Part shown: piece by piece, positions 8,359 to 17,589 of the stretch | How the letters are laid out: each line of letters begins with the position of its first letter | How positions within the stretch are numbered: the stretch's first letter is position 1 | DNA from: Candidatus Nealsonbacteria bacterium | Lineage (GTDB): Bacteria > Patescibacteriota > Minisyncoccia > Minisyncoccales > JANBVM01 | Assembly: GCA_047456315.1 (NCBI GenBank) | Contig: CP179889.1 | Location: 512,776-576,775 of the forward strand | Reading direction: 5' to 3' | DNA: 64,000 bases | Notes under the pieces: model-generated | Database searches by the model: none | What the model saw: the letters and a program-made list of their open reading frames with translations, nothing else | Told to the model about the DNA's origin: nothing | Made by a program: the position numbers and the translations under genes

Positions 8359-10344
8359 ATGATAAATAAAATTAAATTGTTTTTTACTTTAGCAATTTTA
8401 GGACTAATCTTAGGAAATGCTATTAATGCTCAAGAAACAGACCTCTCACCAGAAATCAGCGACATTAGCTGTAGCCTTGAAGAACCATGTGCCGAGGGAT
8501 TAGAATGTTTCAGTTTTCCAGAAATAGGTTTGAGATGCGCCCAATCTAATCCTTGTAGTTATTATGAGTGTCCTGAAGACACTCAATGTTTTGAAGCTGA
8601 AAGCTATCCTGTTCAAATTATCTGTTCACTATCAGATGGAGCTGAAAATCCAGAAGAAACAATAGTTTCTGCTGAGGCCCAGCAAGAAGTGGATTTAGAC
8701 GAAAACATTCAGCCAGCTGATCTGGAGATTAACCAACCCACAATATTACCTGACAGCCCATTTTACTTCTTCAAAAACATGGGAAGAGCAGTAAGAACCT
8801 TTTTCACCTTTGACCCAGTTAAAAAAGCAGAATTAAAAGAACAGTTCACAGGTGAAAAGTTAATGGAGCTTAAAAGAATGGTTGAAGAGAATAAAAATGC
8901 AAATGCAATCAGAAATGCTGCTCAAAACTATCAGGAGGAACTACAAGGACTGAAAACATTTGCAGAAAGAATAAGAACTACTGCACAGGAAAACGAACAA
9001 GTGGAAAATTTCTTAGACAAATACATTCAGCATAATATTCTTCATCAAAGAGTACTTCAAAAATTAGAAACTCAAGTGCCCGATGAAGTTTTTGAAAAAA
9101 TACAGCAGGTCAGAAACAATCACTTGGATAGATTCAACGATATAATGATTAAACTTGAAGACAAAAATAAAATCCCTGAGAGATTAGAAAAAAACCTAGA
9201 AGCAATAAAAGGAAGCGACTTTAAAGATTTTAAAAACTTAGAAATTCTCGATGACTTAAAAGAAAAGTTTCCTGAAGATATTAGAAATAGAATTGAAGAA
9301 CGAAAAGATAGCATTTTAAACAACTTACGAGAAAAGTTGGAAAACCTTCCAGAAGAACGCCGTGACATCTTAGAAGAATATATTGAAAAAATCAGTGGAG
9401 ATAAAATTAAACAGCTTGATATTTTAAACGCCTTAGAAGGAACAGAGCTCTCAGACAAATTAAATACTGTAATTAAAAGAGTAAAAGAAATCAGTGTCCA
9501 AAGAATAGAAAGCCAATACCAAAACATAGTAACAAAAGAAAAAGTAGAGCTCACAATAACCCAAGCTACAGATTTATTAGCAAAAGTAAAAAGCTTAATT
9601 GTAGAAAAAAACACTACAGCTGAAGAAATACCAGAGATCTTCAGATTAATTGAAGAAGCTGAAGAAAAATTAGAAGCAGCTAAAACAGAATTTGACCAAA
9701 AAAATTATGGCAGAGCTTATAGCCTGGCAATCTCTTCTTCATCCCTTTCAAAAAACGCTATAAGGATTATGGAAATAAGGGCTGGGTTTAAAGAAGATGA
9801 AACTAACCGAGGATTACTAATTTGCGCTGATATTGTTTCCCCTGTCTGTGCTAAGGATGGAAGAACTTATAAGAATATTTGTGAGGCAAAAAAAGCTGAA
9901 GCAGAGATTGTCTATAGAGGAGAATGTAAAACCAATTTAGTTTGCGCTCAGGAAGGTGAACAAATAAACAGAAACCCTCTTCTTGGTCCAGCTGAAAGAA
10001 GGTGTTGCGAAGGATTAGAAGAAATCAGGGTCAGCAGAACTTATAGTATTTGCAAGCAGCCTGGCGCCTCTTTTGAATGTAAAGTTGATAGTGACTGCCC
10101 TCTCCCTCGCTGTCTAACAACAACAGCCACAGCATCAAAATGTGTTGAAGGTAAATGCATACTCCCTGTTTGTTATAAACCAGAAATATGTATCCAGGTT
10201 ATTACTCCAGCTAGAAATTCTAAAACAGGTGAATGCAGAAACTTCCCCACTCCATGCGATGTTCCAGCAGGATGGGAGAGAACTGCAGCTTGTAAAATCC
10301 CGCAACTACTAAAAAGTCAAACTCAATTAAAAATTAGTCAATAA
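8359..10344 (+). CDS. Secreted Cys-rich protein: signal peptide, DUF5667-like segment, long coiled coil, Kazal-like module, Cys-rich C-terminus
   Basis: Signal peptide MINKIKLFFTLAILGLILGNAINAQE. LPDSPFYFFKNMGRAVRTFFTF resembles DUF5667. CADIVSPVCAKDGRTYKNICEAKKAEAEIVYRGEC (9823-9927) matches the Kazal pattern C-x-PVC-x-DG-x-TY-x-N-x-C. Confidence 0.7.
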   Translation: MINKIKLFFTLAILGLILGNAINAQETDLSPEISDISCSLEEPCAEGLECFSFPEIGLRCAQSNPCSYYECPEDTQCFEAESYPVQIICSLSDGAENPEETIVSAEAQQEVDLDENIQPADLEINQPTILPDSPFYFFKNMGRAVRTFFTFDPVKKAELKEQFTGEKLMELKRMVEENKNANAIRNAAQNYQEELQGLKTFAERIRTTAQENEQVENFLDKYIQHNILHQRVLQKLETQVPDEVFEKIQQVRNNHLDRFNDIMIKLEDKNKIPERLEKNLEAIKGSDFKDFKNLEILDDLKEKFPEDIRNRIEERKDSILNNLREKLENLPEERRDILEEYIEKISGDKIKQLDILNALEGTELSDKLNTVIKRVKEISVQRIESQYQNIVTKEKVELTITQATDLLAKVKSLIVEKNTTAEEIPEIFRLIEEAEEKLEAAKTEFDQKNYGRAYSLAISSSSLSKNAIRIMEIRAGFKEDETNRGLLICADIVSPVCAKDGRTYKNICEAKKAEAEIVYRGECKTNLVCAQEGEQINRNPLLGPAERRCCEGLEEIRVSRTYSICKQPGASFECKVDSDCPLPRCLTTTATASKCVEGKCILPVCYKPEICIQVITPARNSKTGECRNFPTPCDVPAGWERTAACKIPQLLKSQTQLKISQ

Positions 10345-10374
10345 GATACAGGTTTGTAAGTTTTACAATAGAAG

Positions 10375-10402
10375 AACAGCTTAAATCAGGCTGTTTTTCT
10401 GT
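10375..10402 (+). terminator. Intrinsic terminator after the secreted-protein gene
   Basis: AACAGC-ttaaatcag-GCTGTT followed by TTTTCTGTT. Confidence 0.55.
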
Positions 10403-10413
10403 TATATCAGCTC

Positions 10414-10442
10414 TTGCCTGATATATCGCTACGAGTTATAAA
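10414..10442 (+). promoter_or_regulatory. Sigma70-like promoter (TTGCCT-17-TATAAA) for miaB-miaA, 8 nt before the ATG
   Basis: TTGCCT 10414-10419, TATAAA 10437-10442, ATG 10451. Confidence 0.45.
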
Positions 10443-10450
10443 TATTACAT

Positions 10451-12613
10451 ATGAAATATTTTATTCTTACCTATGGCTGCCAGATGAATATTTCTGATTC
10501 TGAAAGAATCGCCTCTCTTTTAGAGAATCTCGGCTATCAACCGGCTTTGATTAAAAATAAAGCTGATTTAATAGTGGTTAACATGTGTTCAGTAAGACAA
10601 TCTGCTGTAGATAGAATTTATGGAGCTGGTATAAAATTCCAAAAACTAAAGAAAAAAAACAAGAAACTAAAAACAATTTTAACAGGTTGCATTTCTAAAA
10701 AAGACCATAAAAAACTTATTAAAATATTCGATCTGGTTTTAAATATTAAAAGCTTAAACCAATGGCCGAAATATCTTGAAGCTGGGTTTTCGTCAAAACT
10801 ATGGCCCACTTTACTCCGTCAAACCAGTGAATATTTCAATGTACAGCCCAAACACACAAGCAAGTTTTCAGCTCTAATCCCAATATCTATTGGCTGTAAT
10901 AACTCCTGCGCTTATTGTATTGTTCCTTTTACTCGCGGGCCTTTAATTTGCAGAAGTCATAAAGAAATAATAAAAGAGGTTAAAAAAGCAGTTAAAAATA
11001 GTGCAAAAGAAATATGGCTTTTAGGACAAAACGTTAATGATTATAAATCCCCTATTAATTCTAAAGTAAATTTCGCAAAGCTTTTAAAAATGGTTAATAA
11101 TATTGATGGTGATTTTTGGATAAGATTTACATCTCCAAATCCAAAAGATTTCTCAGATAAATTAATTAACACAATAACCAAATTAGAAAAAGTCACAGAA
11201 TACCTTAACCTGCCAGTTCAGTCTGGGGATAATAAAATTTTAAAAAAAATGAATCGGACTTATACAATTAAAAATTACAAAAATTTAGTTGAGAAAATAA
11301 GGAAAGGAATCCCAGGCATTAGTTTATCAACTGATGTTATTGTTGGTTTTCCAACTGAAACAAAAAAGCAATTCCAAAATACAGCTAAATTATTTAAAGA
11401 AATGAAGTTTGATATGGCATATATTGCTAAGTATTCTCCCCGCCCCCACACAAAAGCCAGCAACTTAAAAGATAATATTTCTAAAAAAGAAAAGAAAAAC
11501 AGATGGATTGCTTTAACAAAAATTCTTGAAAAAACTGCTTTAGAAAACAATAAAAAATATATTGGGAAAGAGGTTAAAGTATTGATAGATGAATATAAGA
11601 AAGGATTCTTGTTTGGAAAAACTAGAACCTATAAAACAGTGAAAATTCCAGCAGTTGATAAAAATTTAGTTGGAAAAATTACGAATGTAAAAATCACTGA
11701 TGCTTTAAGCTGGGGACTGAAAGGAGTTTTAATTAAACCAAAACTAATTGTGATTTTAGGACCTACTGCAGCTGGTAAAACAGGTTTAGCTGTCAAATTA
11801 GCAAGACAATTCAATGGTGAAATTATTTCAGCTGACTCAAGACAAATCTACAAAGAAATGGCTATTGGTACTGCCAAGCCAACGAAAAAAGAAACAAAAG
11901 CTGTCCCCCACCACCTTATTGATTTTGTTTCTCTGAGTAAAGATTTTAATGTTGCAATATATAAAAACAAAGCGTTAAAAGTTATTGAAAAAATATATAA
12001 AAAAGGAAAGGTTCCGTTCCTGGTGGGCGGAACAGGACTATATATTAAAGCAATTGTTGATAATATTGACTTTCCAAAAGTAAAACCTAATAAAAAATTA
12101 AGGGAGCAGTTGGAAAAAAAGAGCACTGGAGAATTATTCAAAATCTATAAAAAACTAGATCCTCAAGGCGCTAAATTAATTGATAAAAACAATAAAAGAA
12201 GATTGGTAAGAGCAATTGAGGTCTCAAAATTAACAGGAAAACCATTCTGGGATCAAAGAAAAAAACAAATCCCTCTTTTTGAAGTTTTGCAAATCGGAAT
12301 AAAACTACCAAAAAAAGAATTAAAAAAGAGAATCTCAAAAAGAACTGATAAAATGTTTAAACTTGGACTTGAAAAAGAACTGAAAAAATTAAAGAAAAAA
12401 TATGTAAAATCACCCTTGCTTCAAACCATTGGCTATGCTGAATGGTTTCAGTATACGGATAAGGAAAAAATAAAAGAAGCTATTAAACTTCATACTCTTC
12501 AATTTGCCAAGCGCCAGATGACCTGGTTTAAAAAAGACAAAAAAATACTTTGGATTAAAAACTATTCCCAAGCTAAATCTCTAATCAAAAGCTTCCTTAA
12601 TAAAAAACTATAG
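10451..12613 (+). CDS. miaB-miaA: Fusion protein: MiaB (tRNA i6A37 methylthiotransferase) + MiaA (tRNA dimethylallyltransferase)
   Basis: Residues 1-428 are MiaB: YGCQMNISDSE, radical-SAM CNNSCAYCIVP, TRAM-like end KITNVKITDALSWGLKG. Residues 429-720 are MiaA: LIVILGPTAAGKTGLAVKLA..EIISADSRQIYKEMAIGTAKP. One uninterrupted frame. Confidence 0.85.
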   Translation: MKYFILTYGCQMNISDSERIASLLENLGYQPALIKNKADLIVVNMCSVRQSAVDRIYGAGIKFQKLKKKNKKLKTILTGCISKKDHKKLIKIFDLVLNIKSLNQWPKYLEAGFSSKLWPTLLRQTSEYFNVQPKHTSKFSALIPISIGCNNSCAYCIVPFTRGPLICRSHKEIIKEVKKAVKNSAKEIWLLGQNVNDYKSPINSKVNFAKLLKMVNNIDGDFWIRFTSPNPKDFSDKLINTITKLEKVTEYLNLPVQSGDNKILKKMNRTYTIKNYKNLVEKIRKGIPGISLSTDVIVGFPTETKKQFQNTAKLFKEMKFDMAYIAKYSPRPHTKASNLKDNISKKEKKNRWIALTKILEKTALENNKKYIGKEVKVLIDEYKKGFLFGKTRTYKTVKIPAVDKNLVGKITNVKITDALSWGLKGVLIKPKLIVILGPTAAGKTGLAVKLARQFNGEIISADSRQIYKEMAIGTAKPTKKETKAVPHHLIDFVSLSKDFNVAIYKNKALKVIEKIYKKGKVPFLVGGTGLYIKAIVDNIDFPKVKPNKKLREQLEKKSTGELFKIYKKLDPQGAKLIDKNNKRRLVRAIEVSKLTGKPFWDQRKKQIPLFEVLQIGIKLPKKELKKRISKRTDKMFKLGLEKELKKLKKKYVKSPLLQTIGYAEWFQYTDKEKIKEAIKLHTLQFAKRQMTWFKKDKKILWIKNYSQAKSLIKSFLNKKL

Positions 12614-14074
12614 GTTTTCTTTTAAGATTCTTTCTGCTGTTTTAGGATCTACTCTGCCTTTTGTTTTAGCCATTACTTGACCTATTAAGAACTGGATTGC
12701 ATTTCCTTTTCCTTTTTTAAAATCTGCTGCTGCTTTTTGGTTGGTTGAAATTATGTTTCTAACAATACCAATAATTTCATTTTTATCAGTCATTTGAGTT
12801 AATCCTTTCTCTTCAATAATATTTGAAGGATCAGCGCCAGTTTGAAACATTTCCAAAAGAATTGTTTTAGCAACTTTACTCATTATTGTTTTGTTCTCAA
12901 TTAAACTAATGAATTCAGCGAAATTCTCTGGAGTAATAAAAAAATCTTCACCTTCAACACCTCTTTCTTTTAATAAGGACTGAAGGTCAGTAATCATATA
13001 ATTTGCTGCTAGGGTTATCAGACCATGAAGCTTATCTTTAGCAAGATTAGGCTCAAACTCAGAAACCACCTTTTCAAAATACTCCCCCAAGTCCTTGTTA
13101 TAAACAAAAAATTCAACACTGTCCTCGTCCAGCTTATACTCACTAGACAGTCTTGTTCTTTTATTGAAAGGAAGCTCAGGGATTTCAGCTCTAATTTCAT
13201 TAATCTCATCTTTGCTAAACACTAAAGGCAGTAAATCAGGTTCTGGGAGATAACGGTAATCATGGGCTTCTTCCTTTTCACGCTGAGAAACTGTTATTAA
13301 TTTTTTCTCGTCCCAGCCTCTTGTTTCCTGAGCAACTTTTTTCCCTTTTTTTAACAACTCTTCCTGTCTTTTAATCTCATAATCAATTGCTTTTTCAACA
13401 ACCCTAAAAGAATTAAGGTTTTTAATTTCTACTTTTGTGCCTAATTTCTTTGAACCTTTTGGCTTAACTGATATATTCGCTTCTATTCTTAATTGACCTT
13501 TTTCCATATTAGCTTCAGAAACCTGGAGATAGCGAAGAAGCAAATGCAGTTCCTGGCTGAATTTCCTGGCCTCCAGAGCTGAGTTCATATCAGGCTCAGT
13601 CACCAGTTCCATTAACGGAATACCAGCCCTGTTAAAACTAACCAAGCTATAATCTGCTCCTTTACTATGAACTGAACTGCCAGTATCTTCTTCTAAATGA
13701 ACTCGGGTAATCCTTACAGTTTTTAACTCTTTTCCTTTGATTTTAAACTTTAATTCCCCTTTTTGAGCAATAGGCATGTCATACTGGGAAATCTGATAAC
13801 CTTTTGGCAGGTCAGGATAAAAATAATTCTTCCTGTCAAACTTTGAAACCATTGAAATCTCTGAACTTAAAGCCAGGCCAGTTTTAATAACCTTTCTAAC
13901 AGCTTGTTTATTGATAACCGGAAGTGTTCCAGGGTGTCCAAGACATATCGGACAGATGTTAATATTAGGATGCCTCTCATCAGCATCATTCTTACATGAG
14001 CAAAACATTTTAGAATTAGTGCCTAATTCCGCATGTACTTCCAGACCTATTACTGGTTGAAATTTAGATTCCAT
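12608..14074 (-). CDS. gatB: Asp/Glu-tRNA amidotransferase subunit B
   Basis: 488 aa; VIGLEVHAELGTNSKMFCSC...GHPGTLPV...and a YqeY-like C-terminal domain. Confidence 0.95.
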   Translation of the reverse strand: MESKFQPVIGLEVHAELGTNSKMFCSCKNDADERHPNINICPICLGHPGTLPVINKQAVRKVIKTGLALSSEISMVSKFDRKNYFYPDLPKGYQISQYDMPIAQKGELKFKIKGKELKTVRITRVHLEEDTGSSVHSKGADYSLVSFNRAGIPLMELVTEPDMNSALEARKFSQELHLLLRYLQVSEANMEKGQLRIEANISVKPKGSKKLGTKVEIKNLNSFRVVEKAIDYEIKRQEELLKKGKKVAQETRGWDEKKLITVSQREKEEAHDYRYLPEPDLLPLVFSKDEINEIRAEIPELPFNKRTRLSSEYKLDEDSVEFFVYNKDLGEYFEKVVSEFEPNLAKDKLHGLITLAANYMITDLQSLLKERGVEGEDFFITPENFAEFISLIENKTIMSKVAKTILLEMFQTGADPSNIIEEKGLTQMTDKNEIIGIVRNIISTNQKAAADFKKGKGNAIQFLIGQVMAKTKGRVDPKTAERILKENL

Positions 14075-16146: not shown

Positions 16147-17589
16147 TTATAATGATAGTTCTTTATCCTGAATATAATCCAGACCATTCTTTATAGCAAT
16201 TTCAGCTTTTTGAAGCTCAGTTCCCAAATCAAAAGCATGAGAAAGCTCAGAAACAGTTTCAGCTAGAATTAACTTATTATATATTTTAATAGCAGCTTTC
16301 TCTTCTAATCCATTTTGTTGAAATTCCTGTAAAAATTGATTGTCAGGAGAATAATGCCTTAAAATAATATCTTTTCCTTTAATACTAATAATGAAATAGC
16401 CACGCGGGTCAAGACAATAATCTAGTTTCTTAAAACCATGCTCTTGAATTATTTTTTTTGCTGCTGGTAATTCATTGTCATAGATATGAGCGCAATTAGA
16501 AAAAATAGTTAAAAGCCCTGGTTTCTTAGATAATTGTTCAGCTAAATAATACTGAACACGACGCAGACCAAATGCATTCAAAACCCAGCCAGAAAATATG
16601 GCATGGCTTCTAAAATATGCAGTTAAATTTAGCTTATCTTTTAATGTTGTTGCCTGAACTAAACACATACAAGGAGACCTAGAAGCTTTATGGTCAACGG
16701 TCATATCAAATGTCACGGCTAATGCAGCCCTATCATTAGGATGTTTTTTTAAATAAGGTATCATTACATCCTCTACTTGATTTATTCCTTTATAGTTCCA
16801 GAGCCGCTCACCATAACTATAGATTTCATCTCCCCTATCGCCCTTCATAATGCTTGACTGATACTTTTCTATGTCCTGTTTGCTAACCTGTAAAAAAGGA
16901 AATATTTCAGGCCTAAAAGGATCCTCATCGCTAATAACACTGGCAATATTAAAAATTTCTCTTACTTCATTCCCATACCAGCTCTTATTAACCGCTCCAA
17001 ACTTTAAGATAAGCTTTAAAATTCTAAGCCAGGCAGACCCAATATACTTTTCCCTTACCTTAAAAACTGACTGGTCAGTAGGAAAAGAAGTGGATTTTTT
17101 TTCTTTATGCTCAGTAAATGTTTGAGAATCAGCAAATGGTTTACCCTTCAGTAAACAGCTTTTTAGTTCTTTAGCTATTTTATCTGCATCTCTTATGCCT
17201 ATCAGGTTTTTAATCTTAACATTTCTCCTTATAAGCTCTATTGCTTCTTCTGGTATTTCTTTATGGATTAAAGCAAAATCAGTATCAACAATATTGTAGT
17301 TTTTATCAATGCCTTTTTGAAAAAAGTTAATTAAAGCTTGCCCTGAACTTGAAATATCCTGACCGCAAACTATTAAATAATGTATGGATGGATTAGCTAA
17401 AATATTCCTGACAATATAGTTAATGCCGCTTTTAGAATAGAGCTGGCCAGCCACACAAAAAAGGTTTTTATCTAACTTCTCAGTAATTTGTTTTGTCGGC
17501 GTCCATAAAGTTACAATAGCAACTTCGCTTTTAGGATTACCTAAAATCAAGTTATCTTTTGAATAAATTGGCCAATTCTTGTTTTCCAT
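16147..17589 (-). CDS. Thymidylate synthase (ThyA-fold) core embedded between an MtrA-like N-terminal domain and a DUF4346-like C-terminal domain
   Basis: 480 aa. The N-terminus parallels MtrA (NWPI..EVAIVTLW..VAGQLYSKSGINYIVRNILANPSIHYLIVCGQD). The middle has YGERLW, HPNDRAALAVTFD, SPCMCLVQ (catalytic Cys), FRSHAIFSGWVLNAFG and AHIYDNE. The C-terminus has LDPRGYFIISIKGKDIILRHY. Confidence 0.75.
   Translation of the reverse strand: MENKNWPIYSKDNLILGNPKSEVAIVTLWTPTKQITEKLDKNLFCVAGQLYSKSGINYIVRNILANPSIHYLIVCGQDISSSGQALINFFQKGIDKNYNIVDTDFALIHKEIPEEAIELIRRNVKIKNLIGIRDADKIAKELKSCLLKGKPFADSQTFTEHKEKKSTSFPTDQSVFKVREKYIGSAWLRILKLILKFGAVNKSWYGNEVREIFNIASVISDEDPFRPEIFPFLQVSKQDIEKYQSSIMKGDRGDEIYSYGERLWNYKGINQVEDVMIPYLKKHPNDRAALAVTFDMTVDHKASRSPCMCLVQATTLKDKLNLTAYFRSHAIFSGWVLNAFGLRRVQYYLAEQLSKKPGLLTIFSNCAHIYDNELPAAKKIIQEHGFKKLDYCLDPRGYFIISIKGKDIILRHYSPDNQFLQEFQQNGLEEKAAIKIYNKLILAETVSELSHAFDLGTELQKAEIAIKNGLDYIQDKELSL

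Follow-up and report, generated by a model that had tools for sequence, protein, structure and literature searches.

Can a single polypeptide carry both of the enzymes that act one after the other on adenosine 37 (A37) of tRNA? The question is raised by a 64,000-nucleotide stretch of contig CP179889.1 from a Candidatus Nealsonbacteria bacterium (positions 512,776 to 576,775 of the forward strand), here called the window, in which one open reading frame (ORF) at 10451-12613 was described in an earlier note as a fusion of MiaB and MiaA. MiaA uses dimethylallyl pyrophosphate (DMAPP) to prenylate A37 at N6 in tRNAs that have A36-A37, and MiaB requires the product, N6-dimethylallyladenosine (i6A37). 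MiaB consumes two molecules of S-adenosylmethionine (SAM): one methylates a sulfur of the auxiliary cluster, and the other yields the 5'-deoxyadenosyl radical that activates C2, leading to 2-methylthio-N6-dimethylallyladenosine (ms2i6A37). Because the order of MiaA before MiaB is long established, the fusion adds nothing new on the pathway, and, as the functional link of the two enzymes is equally well established, it will not surprise a specialist. We report that the ORF joins a complete MiaB to a complete MiaA, that this architecture is common among Patescibacteria, and that it lies where the two separate genes of close relatives overlap.

A complete MiaB and a complete MiaA in one reading frame

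The ORF (10451-12613, forward strand, stop codon included) opens with an ATG and encodes 720 amino acids. Its product is 100% identical to XOB40994.1, an NCBI protein from a Candidatus Nealsonbacteria metagenome-assembled genome (MAG; 647,540-bp contig), whose record gives only the name 'MiaB'. The motifs YGCQMN, GCNNSCAYC, GPTAAGKTG and SADSRQIYKEMAIGTAKP are all found in the translation, and Pfam places four domains along it, namely UPF0004 (residues 2-94), Radical_SAM (143-314), TRAM (368-427) and IPPT (465-696). Residues 2-427 match the NCBIfam equivalog model for MiaB, TIGR01574, at 396.9 bits against a cut-off of 355.3, and the paralogous models for MtaB (315.7 bits, cut-off 357.05) and RimO (259.2 bits, cut-off 356.95) stay below their own cut-offs on the same protein. 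The MiaA equivalog, TIGR00174, is matched by residues 432-703 at 278.3 bits (cut-off 148.65) over profile positions 1-284 of 288, and the Pfam IPPT match, at 250.1 bits, runs over positions 1-243 of 243. Both domain assignments are far beyond chance.

The MiaB half begins with its N-terminal methylthiotransferase/UPF0004 domain (10454-10732; PF00919, 76.5 bits), which holds the auxiliary [4Fe-4S] ligands C10, C46 and C80. It continues with the radical-SAM core (10877-11392; PF04055, 85.2 bits), whose CxxxCxxC motif is present as C149-NNS-C153-AY-C156 at nucleotides 10895-10918, and closes with the TRAM RNA-binding domain as its C-terminal module (11552-11731; PF01938, 37.1 bits against a cut-off of 21; modelled beta strands at residues 374-427). 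Across the junction, V426-L-I-K-P-K431 (11726-11743), a linker of about 3-6 residues separates the last TRAM strand from the first MiaA strand. The MiaA (tRNA dimethylallyltransferase) module follows at 11744-12559, with the P-loop GPTAAGKT at residues 437-444 (nucleotides 11759-11782) and DSRQIY at residues 462-467. The junction, GLKGVLIKPKLIVILGP / WGLKGVLIKPKLIVILGP, keeps its frame unbroken in the raw DNA and has no stop. The earlier note had thus read the locus correctly in taking residues 1-428 as a complete MiaB and 429-720 as a complete MiaA, in placing the second-step enzyme N-terminal to the first-step enzyme, and in finding neither a stop nor a frameshift between them.

Stand-alone MiaB (e.g., from Bacteroides uniformis, PDB 7MJV-7MJZ) has the same UPF0004, radical-SAM and TRAM domains and the same six cluster cysteines but ends after TRAM, whereas the window protein runs on across the linker into a complete MiaA. 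Stand-alone MiaA (E. coli, 2ZM5/3FOZ; B. halodurans, 2QGN/3EXA) likewise shares the P-loop, the catalytic DS..Y and the insertion domain, but has its own start and a free N-terminus, while in the fused protein the first beta strand of MiaA comes directly after the TRAM strand. The fusion is a variant of domain architecture; taken singly, neither half departs from its family, and all of the testable defining features are present.

Conservation and predicted structure of the two halves

Residue conservation was followed in an alignment of 117 fused proteins. The cluster ligands C46, C80, C149, C153 and C156 of the MiaB half are invariant or nearly so, the three radical-SAM cysteines being present in 117 of 117, and C10 is found in 78 of the 78 entries with a called N-terminus (the other 39 begin at M12, as described below). 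In the MiaA half, the P-loop residues G437, T439 and K443 are invariant together with D462 and S463, and GGTGLY, R584, R587 and E590 (of RR..R..E) and Q689 and W692 (of RQ.TW) are invariant or nearly so. Mean column conservation is 0.71-0.75 for the MiaB modules and 0.72 for MiaA, and the spacing of columns from G425 to G437, across the junction, is identical in 98 of the 117 homologues. Neither half appears to be decaying or purely structural.

An AlphaFold2 model of the protein, built with this 117-sequence alignment, has a mean predicted local distance difference test score (pLDDT) of 90.2 and a predicted template modelling score (pTM) of 0.77. The model is ordered at the junction (pLDDT about 92-95), with the last TRAM strand at residues 422-427, the first MiaA strand at 431-436 and three residues between them. 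Foldseek comparison with the PDB matched the model to MiaB 7mjz (template modelling score (TM) 0.90, root-mean-square deviation (rmsd) 2.3 Å) and to the tRNA-bound E. coli MiaA 3foz (TM 0.85, rmsd 2.5 Å over 305 columns); superposed on 3foz, the predicted MiaA half has the fold of core plus helical insertion ('swinging') domain, the clamp of the anticodon stem-loop. The pTM of 0.77 is higher than the contribution of MiaB alone (query-normalised TM 0.57), which suggests that the relative placement of the modules is predicted with moderate confidence. No solved chain with both modules was found in the PDB by fold or by sequence.

Spread of the fusion and its annotation

A search of 5.8 billion proteins returned the fusion widely among Patescibacteria. 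In all 120 of the best 120 clusters considered, IPPT, Radical_SAM and UPF0004 occur together in proteins of 640-763 amino acids, down to 50% identity, and these clusters, drawn from NCBI, JGI, ENA and Logan, are all from Patescibacteria. Among 50%-identity representatives, the best 150 matches include about 14 full-length fused clusters and about 7-8 clusters of junction-crossing fragments, the rest being ordinary MiaB or MiaA. When GTDB species were scanned with one genome each, at least 588 relatives were identified, for the best 80 of which the locus was classified from the ORFs traced around tblastn matches of each half: 41 are fused, 34 have separate, adjacent miaB and miaA genes in that order on the same strand, and 5 have miaB alone in the stretch examined. 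The earlier note had regarded miaA and miaB as normally unlinked, which does not hold in this lineage, where the unfused genes form a conserved adjacent pair on one strand that is often translationally coupled.

The 80 relatives carry titles that include Patescibacteria, Paceibacterota, Parcubacteria, Nealsonbacteria, Buchananbacteria, Staskawiczbacteria, Gribaldobacteria and Minisyncoccales, and a few are probably mislabelled. A cultured organism, Candidatus Microsyncoccus archaeolyticus PMX.50 (L013), is among the carriers of the fused gene. Many (L001, L004, L020, L039, L068, L079 and others) are titled 'uncultured Candidatus Saccharibacteria', 'Gammaproteobacteria' or 'Pacearchaeota archaeon'; the miaB-miaA genes of these MAGs cluster with those of Paceibacteria-type Patescibacteria, and the titles are probably mislabels by a pipeline.

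The earlier note had also allowed that the architecture might turn out to be both common and already annotated. Common it is, but the public records of fused proteins, for which Pfam domains are precomputed, name either 'MiaB' or 'MiaA' and never both, and a full-text search, which left most subscription journals uncovered, found no literature on a natural MiaB-MiaA fusion. NCBIfam gave no match of a bifunctional model to the fused protein. Since the records name one activity and no bifunctional model matches, inventories of tRNA modification in Patescibacteria would wrongly score one of the two steps as missing.

The records also differ in where the protein is said to start. In 39 of the 117 database entries (e.g., P0002, P0003, P0004 and P0271) it is annotated from Met12, the M within YGCQMN, and the Cys10 ligand is omitted. 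As P0271 is otherwise identical to P0270 and only 2 residues different from the window protein, the Met12 start is a systematic miscall by gene callers.

The miaB/miaA boundary in fused and separate loci

In the separate pairs, the 3' end of miaB encodes W-G-L-K/E-G-E, with codons that spell an AAAGGAG or GAAGGAG Shine-Dalgarno sequence, and the miaA ATG lies within a few bases of it, often overlapping the miaB stop as ATGA. At the boundary of L076, ttaaaaggagaaataatATGAaagataaattaatagtt, for instance, WGLKGEII* overlaps MKDKLIVILGP, and L073 and L071 are alike; in L055, L070 and L077 the two genes overlap by 8-11 nucleotides. The window reads WGLKG-VLI-KPK-LIVILGP at the same spot. AAAGGAG is kept at 11720-11726, in the TRAM codons L-K-G, as a relic of the Shine-Dalgarno sequence that serves miaA in unfused relatives, and in the junction alignment the linker falls on their miaB stop/miaA start overlap. 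The adjacent pairs (e.g., L050, CP179887, Candidatus Nealsonbacteria; L073; L076) therefore resemble the window fusion in gene order, strand, the boundary WGLKGE../..KLIVILGP and the presence of AAAGGAG in the same codons, and differ in that they retain a stop and an ATG, often as ATGA, and encode two polypeptides where the window encodes one.

These boundary sequences indicate that the fusion is a merger of an ancestral pair of adjacent, overlapping and coupled miaB and miaA genes, and that an indel of one or two bases at the overlap suffices to create or undo it. Such an indel, we suggest, abolished the stop/start overlap of a translationally coupled pair and so produced the fusion. The locus is a clear example of an ATGA-overlapping coupled pair becoming one gene, repeatedly, with its Shine-Dalgarno sequence surviving as coding sequence.

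The retained AAAGGAG raises the possibility that free MiaA is also made from an internal start. In the window, no ATG, GTG or TTG lies at Shine-Dalgarno distance after it, the only codon at the right distance being an in-frame ATT at 11732, and internal initiation was rejected for this gene. Among the 37 fused junctions that could be located, one (L019) has a start codon, ATG, at that distance; as the other 36 have none, the fused chain is taken to be the sole product.

Ten relatives (L051, L052, L053, L056, L059, L060, L064, L066, L067 and L072) have miaB and miaA interrupted by 330-630 bp, a stretch that in several of them opens with a hairpin directly behind the miaB stop. These gaps usually hold a small ORF resembling that of a membrane protein, mostly on the opposite strand and dissimilar between lineages, and no tRNA genes were found in the gaps of the ten. 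In L025, the spacer after the miaB stop contains a perfect tandem heptamer, GATTTAA, in about six copies (2122-2170).

Recurrence of the fused and separate states

Fused and split loci are interleaved on a neighbor-joining (NJ) tree built from the concatenated halves. The window, L001 and L002 were grouped in 100 of 100 bootstrap replicates, and in the full tree the sister of this group is L050, the unfused complete Nealsonbacteria genome; in 34 of 100 replicates, the sister group was small (six tips or fewer) and included an unfused locus. On the 100 bootstrap trees, with 40 fused and 32 split tips, Fitch parsimony required between 5 and 11 state changes (median 8), counts that rest on an NJ gene tree from the same proteins rather than on a species tree and that do not distinguish fusion from fission. 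Shuffled states needed 24 changes on average and never fewer than 17. With 5-11 changes observed against 24 after shuffling, the state is inherited and stable within clades, yet has been switched several times.

Fusions without TRAM and a fusion outside Patescibacteria

Some fused proteins (P0033, P0124, P0134, P0150 and P0156) lack TRAM altogether, and in these MiaA begins exactly where TRAM would; TRAM-less fused loci also occur in the species scan (L042, L045 and L047). This suggests that MiaA can supply the RNA binding that is normally given by TRAM. The argument is weakened by four loci (L029, L035, L037 and L040) in which a TRAM-less MiaB of about 350-377 amino acids is encoded just upstream of a separate miaA.

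P0150 lies outside Patescibacteria. Proteins named Candidatus Omnitrophota are the nearest to its MiaB half, and the fusion lies beside MerR, HisKA-GGDEF and ParA-like genes on a contig of about 48-50% GC. On the strength of this nearest relationship, base composition and different neighbourhood, the Omnitrophota-like fusion is of independent origin. A search of the neighbourhood of the P0150 MiaB found IPPT only in P0150, P0272 and P0330. These proteins have the same MiaB-then-MiaA order as the window protein but, unlike it, have no TRAM, are rare and arose separately. One locus of the Omnitrophota-like fusion is 55-2217 of L081, a JGI contig (3300009127). Many Omnitrophota MiaB proteins in the same search carry a different C-terminal extension, with SPOR (PF05036) and TPR repeats, at lengths of 600-895 amino acids (e.g., P0276, P0283, P0322 and P0373).

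A probable bifunctional enzyme and the competing readings

Judging from the intact motifs and equivalog matches of both halves, we infer that the product of the ORF is a genuinely bifunctional enzyme of tRNA-A37 modification, and put the probability of this at about 0.85. The C-terminal MiaA would prenylate A37 of UNN-reading tRNAs at N6, with DMAPP as the dimethylallyl donor, giving i6A37, and the N-terminal MiaB, as a radical-SAM enzyme with two [4Fe-4S] clusters and a TRAM domain, would add a methylthio group at C2, giving ms2i6A37. MiaA and MiaB bind one and the same anticodon stem-loop, each with A37 flipped out of it, and the two steps must therefore be sequential. A single chain would fix their stoichiometry at 1:1 in one particle, with the second active site tethered by the product of the first, and would probably favour hand-off of the same anticodon stem-loop. 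Its plausible benefit would be that the tethered MiaB site quickly recaptures i6A-tRNA, with no physical tunnel. That hand-off brings a real advantage is much less certain than that the enzyme is bifunctional.

A parallel is offered by MnmC (MnmC1-MnmC2), the classic bifunctional fusion for two consecutive steps of tRNA wobble modification. MnmC is likewise one polypeptide with two catalytic domains that act successively on one nucleoside, and its domains are separate in other bacteria. The window protein shares this organisation, having two complete modules for successive steps in one translated polypeptide and no internal start at Shine-Dalgarno distance. The likeness is one of organisation only, without homology, as the chemistry, the position (U34 versus A37) and the folds are unrelated.

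Several points weigh against this reading of the fusion as a bifunctional enzyme with hand-off. Since simultaneous action on one tRNA is impossible, true channelling is not implied by the fusion of the two enzymes. The recurrence of the fusion may reflect mutational ease at the ATGA overlap, not selection, and the counts of state changes carry the reservations given with them above. That no second miaA- or miaB-like sequence was found speaks for the bifunctional reading, with the reservation that the search covered the 64-kb window, only part of the genome.

The main rival holds that the fusion is neutral: a one-base indel at the ATGA overlap joined the genes with no kinetic or hand-off gain, and lineages have since drifted between the fused and split states. 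The interleaving of the two states on the tree, with its 5-11 changes, speaks for such drift, and the geometry of the overlap makes switching trivial. Split relatives are, moreover, as conserved as fused ones, and the split L050, L053 and L066 are 60-63% identical to the window protein, compared with 50-56% for members of the large fused clade. Against drift, the linker is very uniform in length (98/117) across a junction that is modelled as ordered, the fusion is stably retained in large clades (8 changes versus 24 when shuffled), the loss of TRAM in some fused lineages hints at functional integration, and a fusion has arisen independently in a second phylum. We regard neutrality as a serious contender that is nonetheless somewhat doubtful.

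At the other extreme, the protein might be a processive 'ms2i6A synthase', in which MiaA holds the stem-loop and passes the flipped i6A37 to MiaB without release of the tRNA, and in which, in the TRAM-less fusions, MiaA replaces the RNA-binding role of TRAM altogether. If true, a MiaB-family methylthiotransferase would here recognise its substrate in a new way, and the fusion would be a natural single-chain system showing the exchange of one tRNA between two A37-modifying enzymes. We consider the proposal tentative and rather unlikely as it stands.

Far less probable is that one half is catalytically dead and kept for tRNA binding, for example with MiaA serving as an RNA-recognition domain for MiaB. 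The TRAM-less fusions, having MiaA in the place of an RNA-binding domain, would fit this, and MiaA may indeed aid RNA binding by MiaB. However, the catalytic motifs of both enzymes vary little or not at all among the window protein and its 117 homologues, the halves are equally conserved and both pass their equivalog thresholds, and MiaB needs i6A37 as substrate while the window holds no other miaA. On the conservation of its motifs, a pseudo-enzyme half was rejected.

The weakest alternative, an assembly artefact in which a lost base merged two truly separate genes of this genome, has something to work from in close relatives such as L050, whose separate genes overlap in different frames so that a one-base error would yield a fusion, but it is effectively refuted by independent assemblies and clade-wide conservation: the junction is the same in two further assemblies of this species-level lineage that differ by 2 residues (XOB42475.1, from a second NCBI genome with a 675,639-bp contig, and a Logan assembly; P0270 and P0271), in 86-90% identical proteins from other sources (e.g., JGI, ENA and Logan) and in 41 species genomes, the fused loci include a closed chromosome (L010, OZ246399.1), and the window has lost the start codon of miaA.

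Taken as a bifunctional enzyme, the MiaB-MiaA protein is a modest curiosity, common in its lineage, whose usefulness lies in annotation and as an experimental system. Single-chain versions, the TRAM-less ones especially, would be convenient structural and kinetic targets for the study of tRNA hand-over.

Genomic setting

The fusion gene has 30% GC in a window of 33% GC and lies among housekeeping genes, the order being dnaE, thrS, a gene for a DUF5667 secreted protein, the fusion, a convergent gatB, a DeoC-like gene, tmk and NYN genes. The 3' end of gatB overlaps the fusion gene by 6 nucleotides. A promoter scan of 10200-12800 gave 11 promoter-like sites, against 10.1 expected by chance, and no terminator was found in a scan of the same interval. 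The tRNA genes in the window are one Asp-GTC and two Met-CAT; none decodes UNN codons, and they are not MiaA substrates.

Two neighbouring products deserve mention. The DUF5667 protein, encoded just upstream (8359-10344, forward strand), is a cysteine-rich secreted protein of 661 amino acids, in whose C-terminal part PVCAKDGRTYKNICEAKKA reads like a Kazal-type inhibitor motif, one that Pfam does not report at E<=1e-4. Adjoining tmk, an ORF of 480 amino acids (16147-17589, reverse strand) has an architecture that is unusual for a thymidylate-related enzyme, combining an MtrA-like domain (PF04208, residues 3-150), a partial thymidylate-synthase match (PF00303, residues 254-419, profile positions 91-260) and PterinBD-DUF4346 (residues 393-475).

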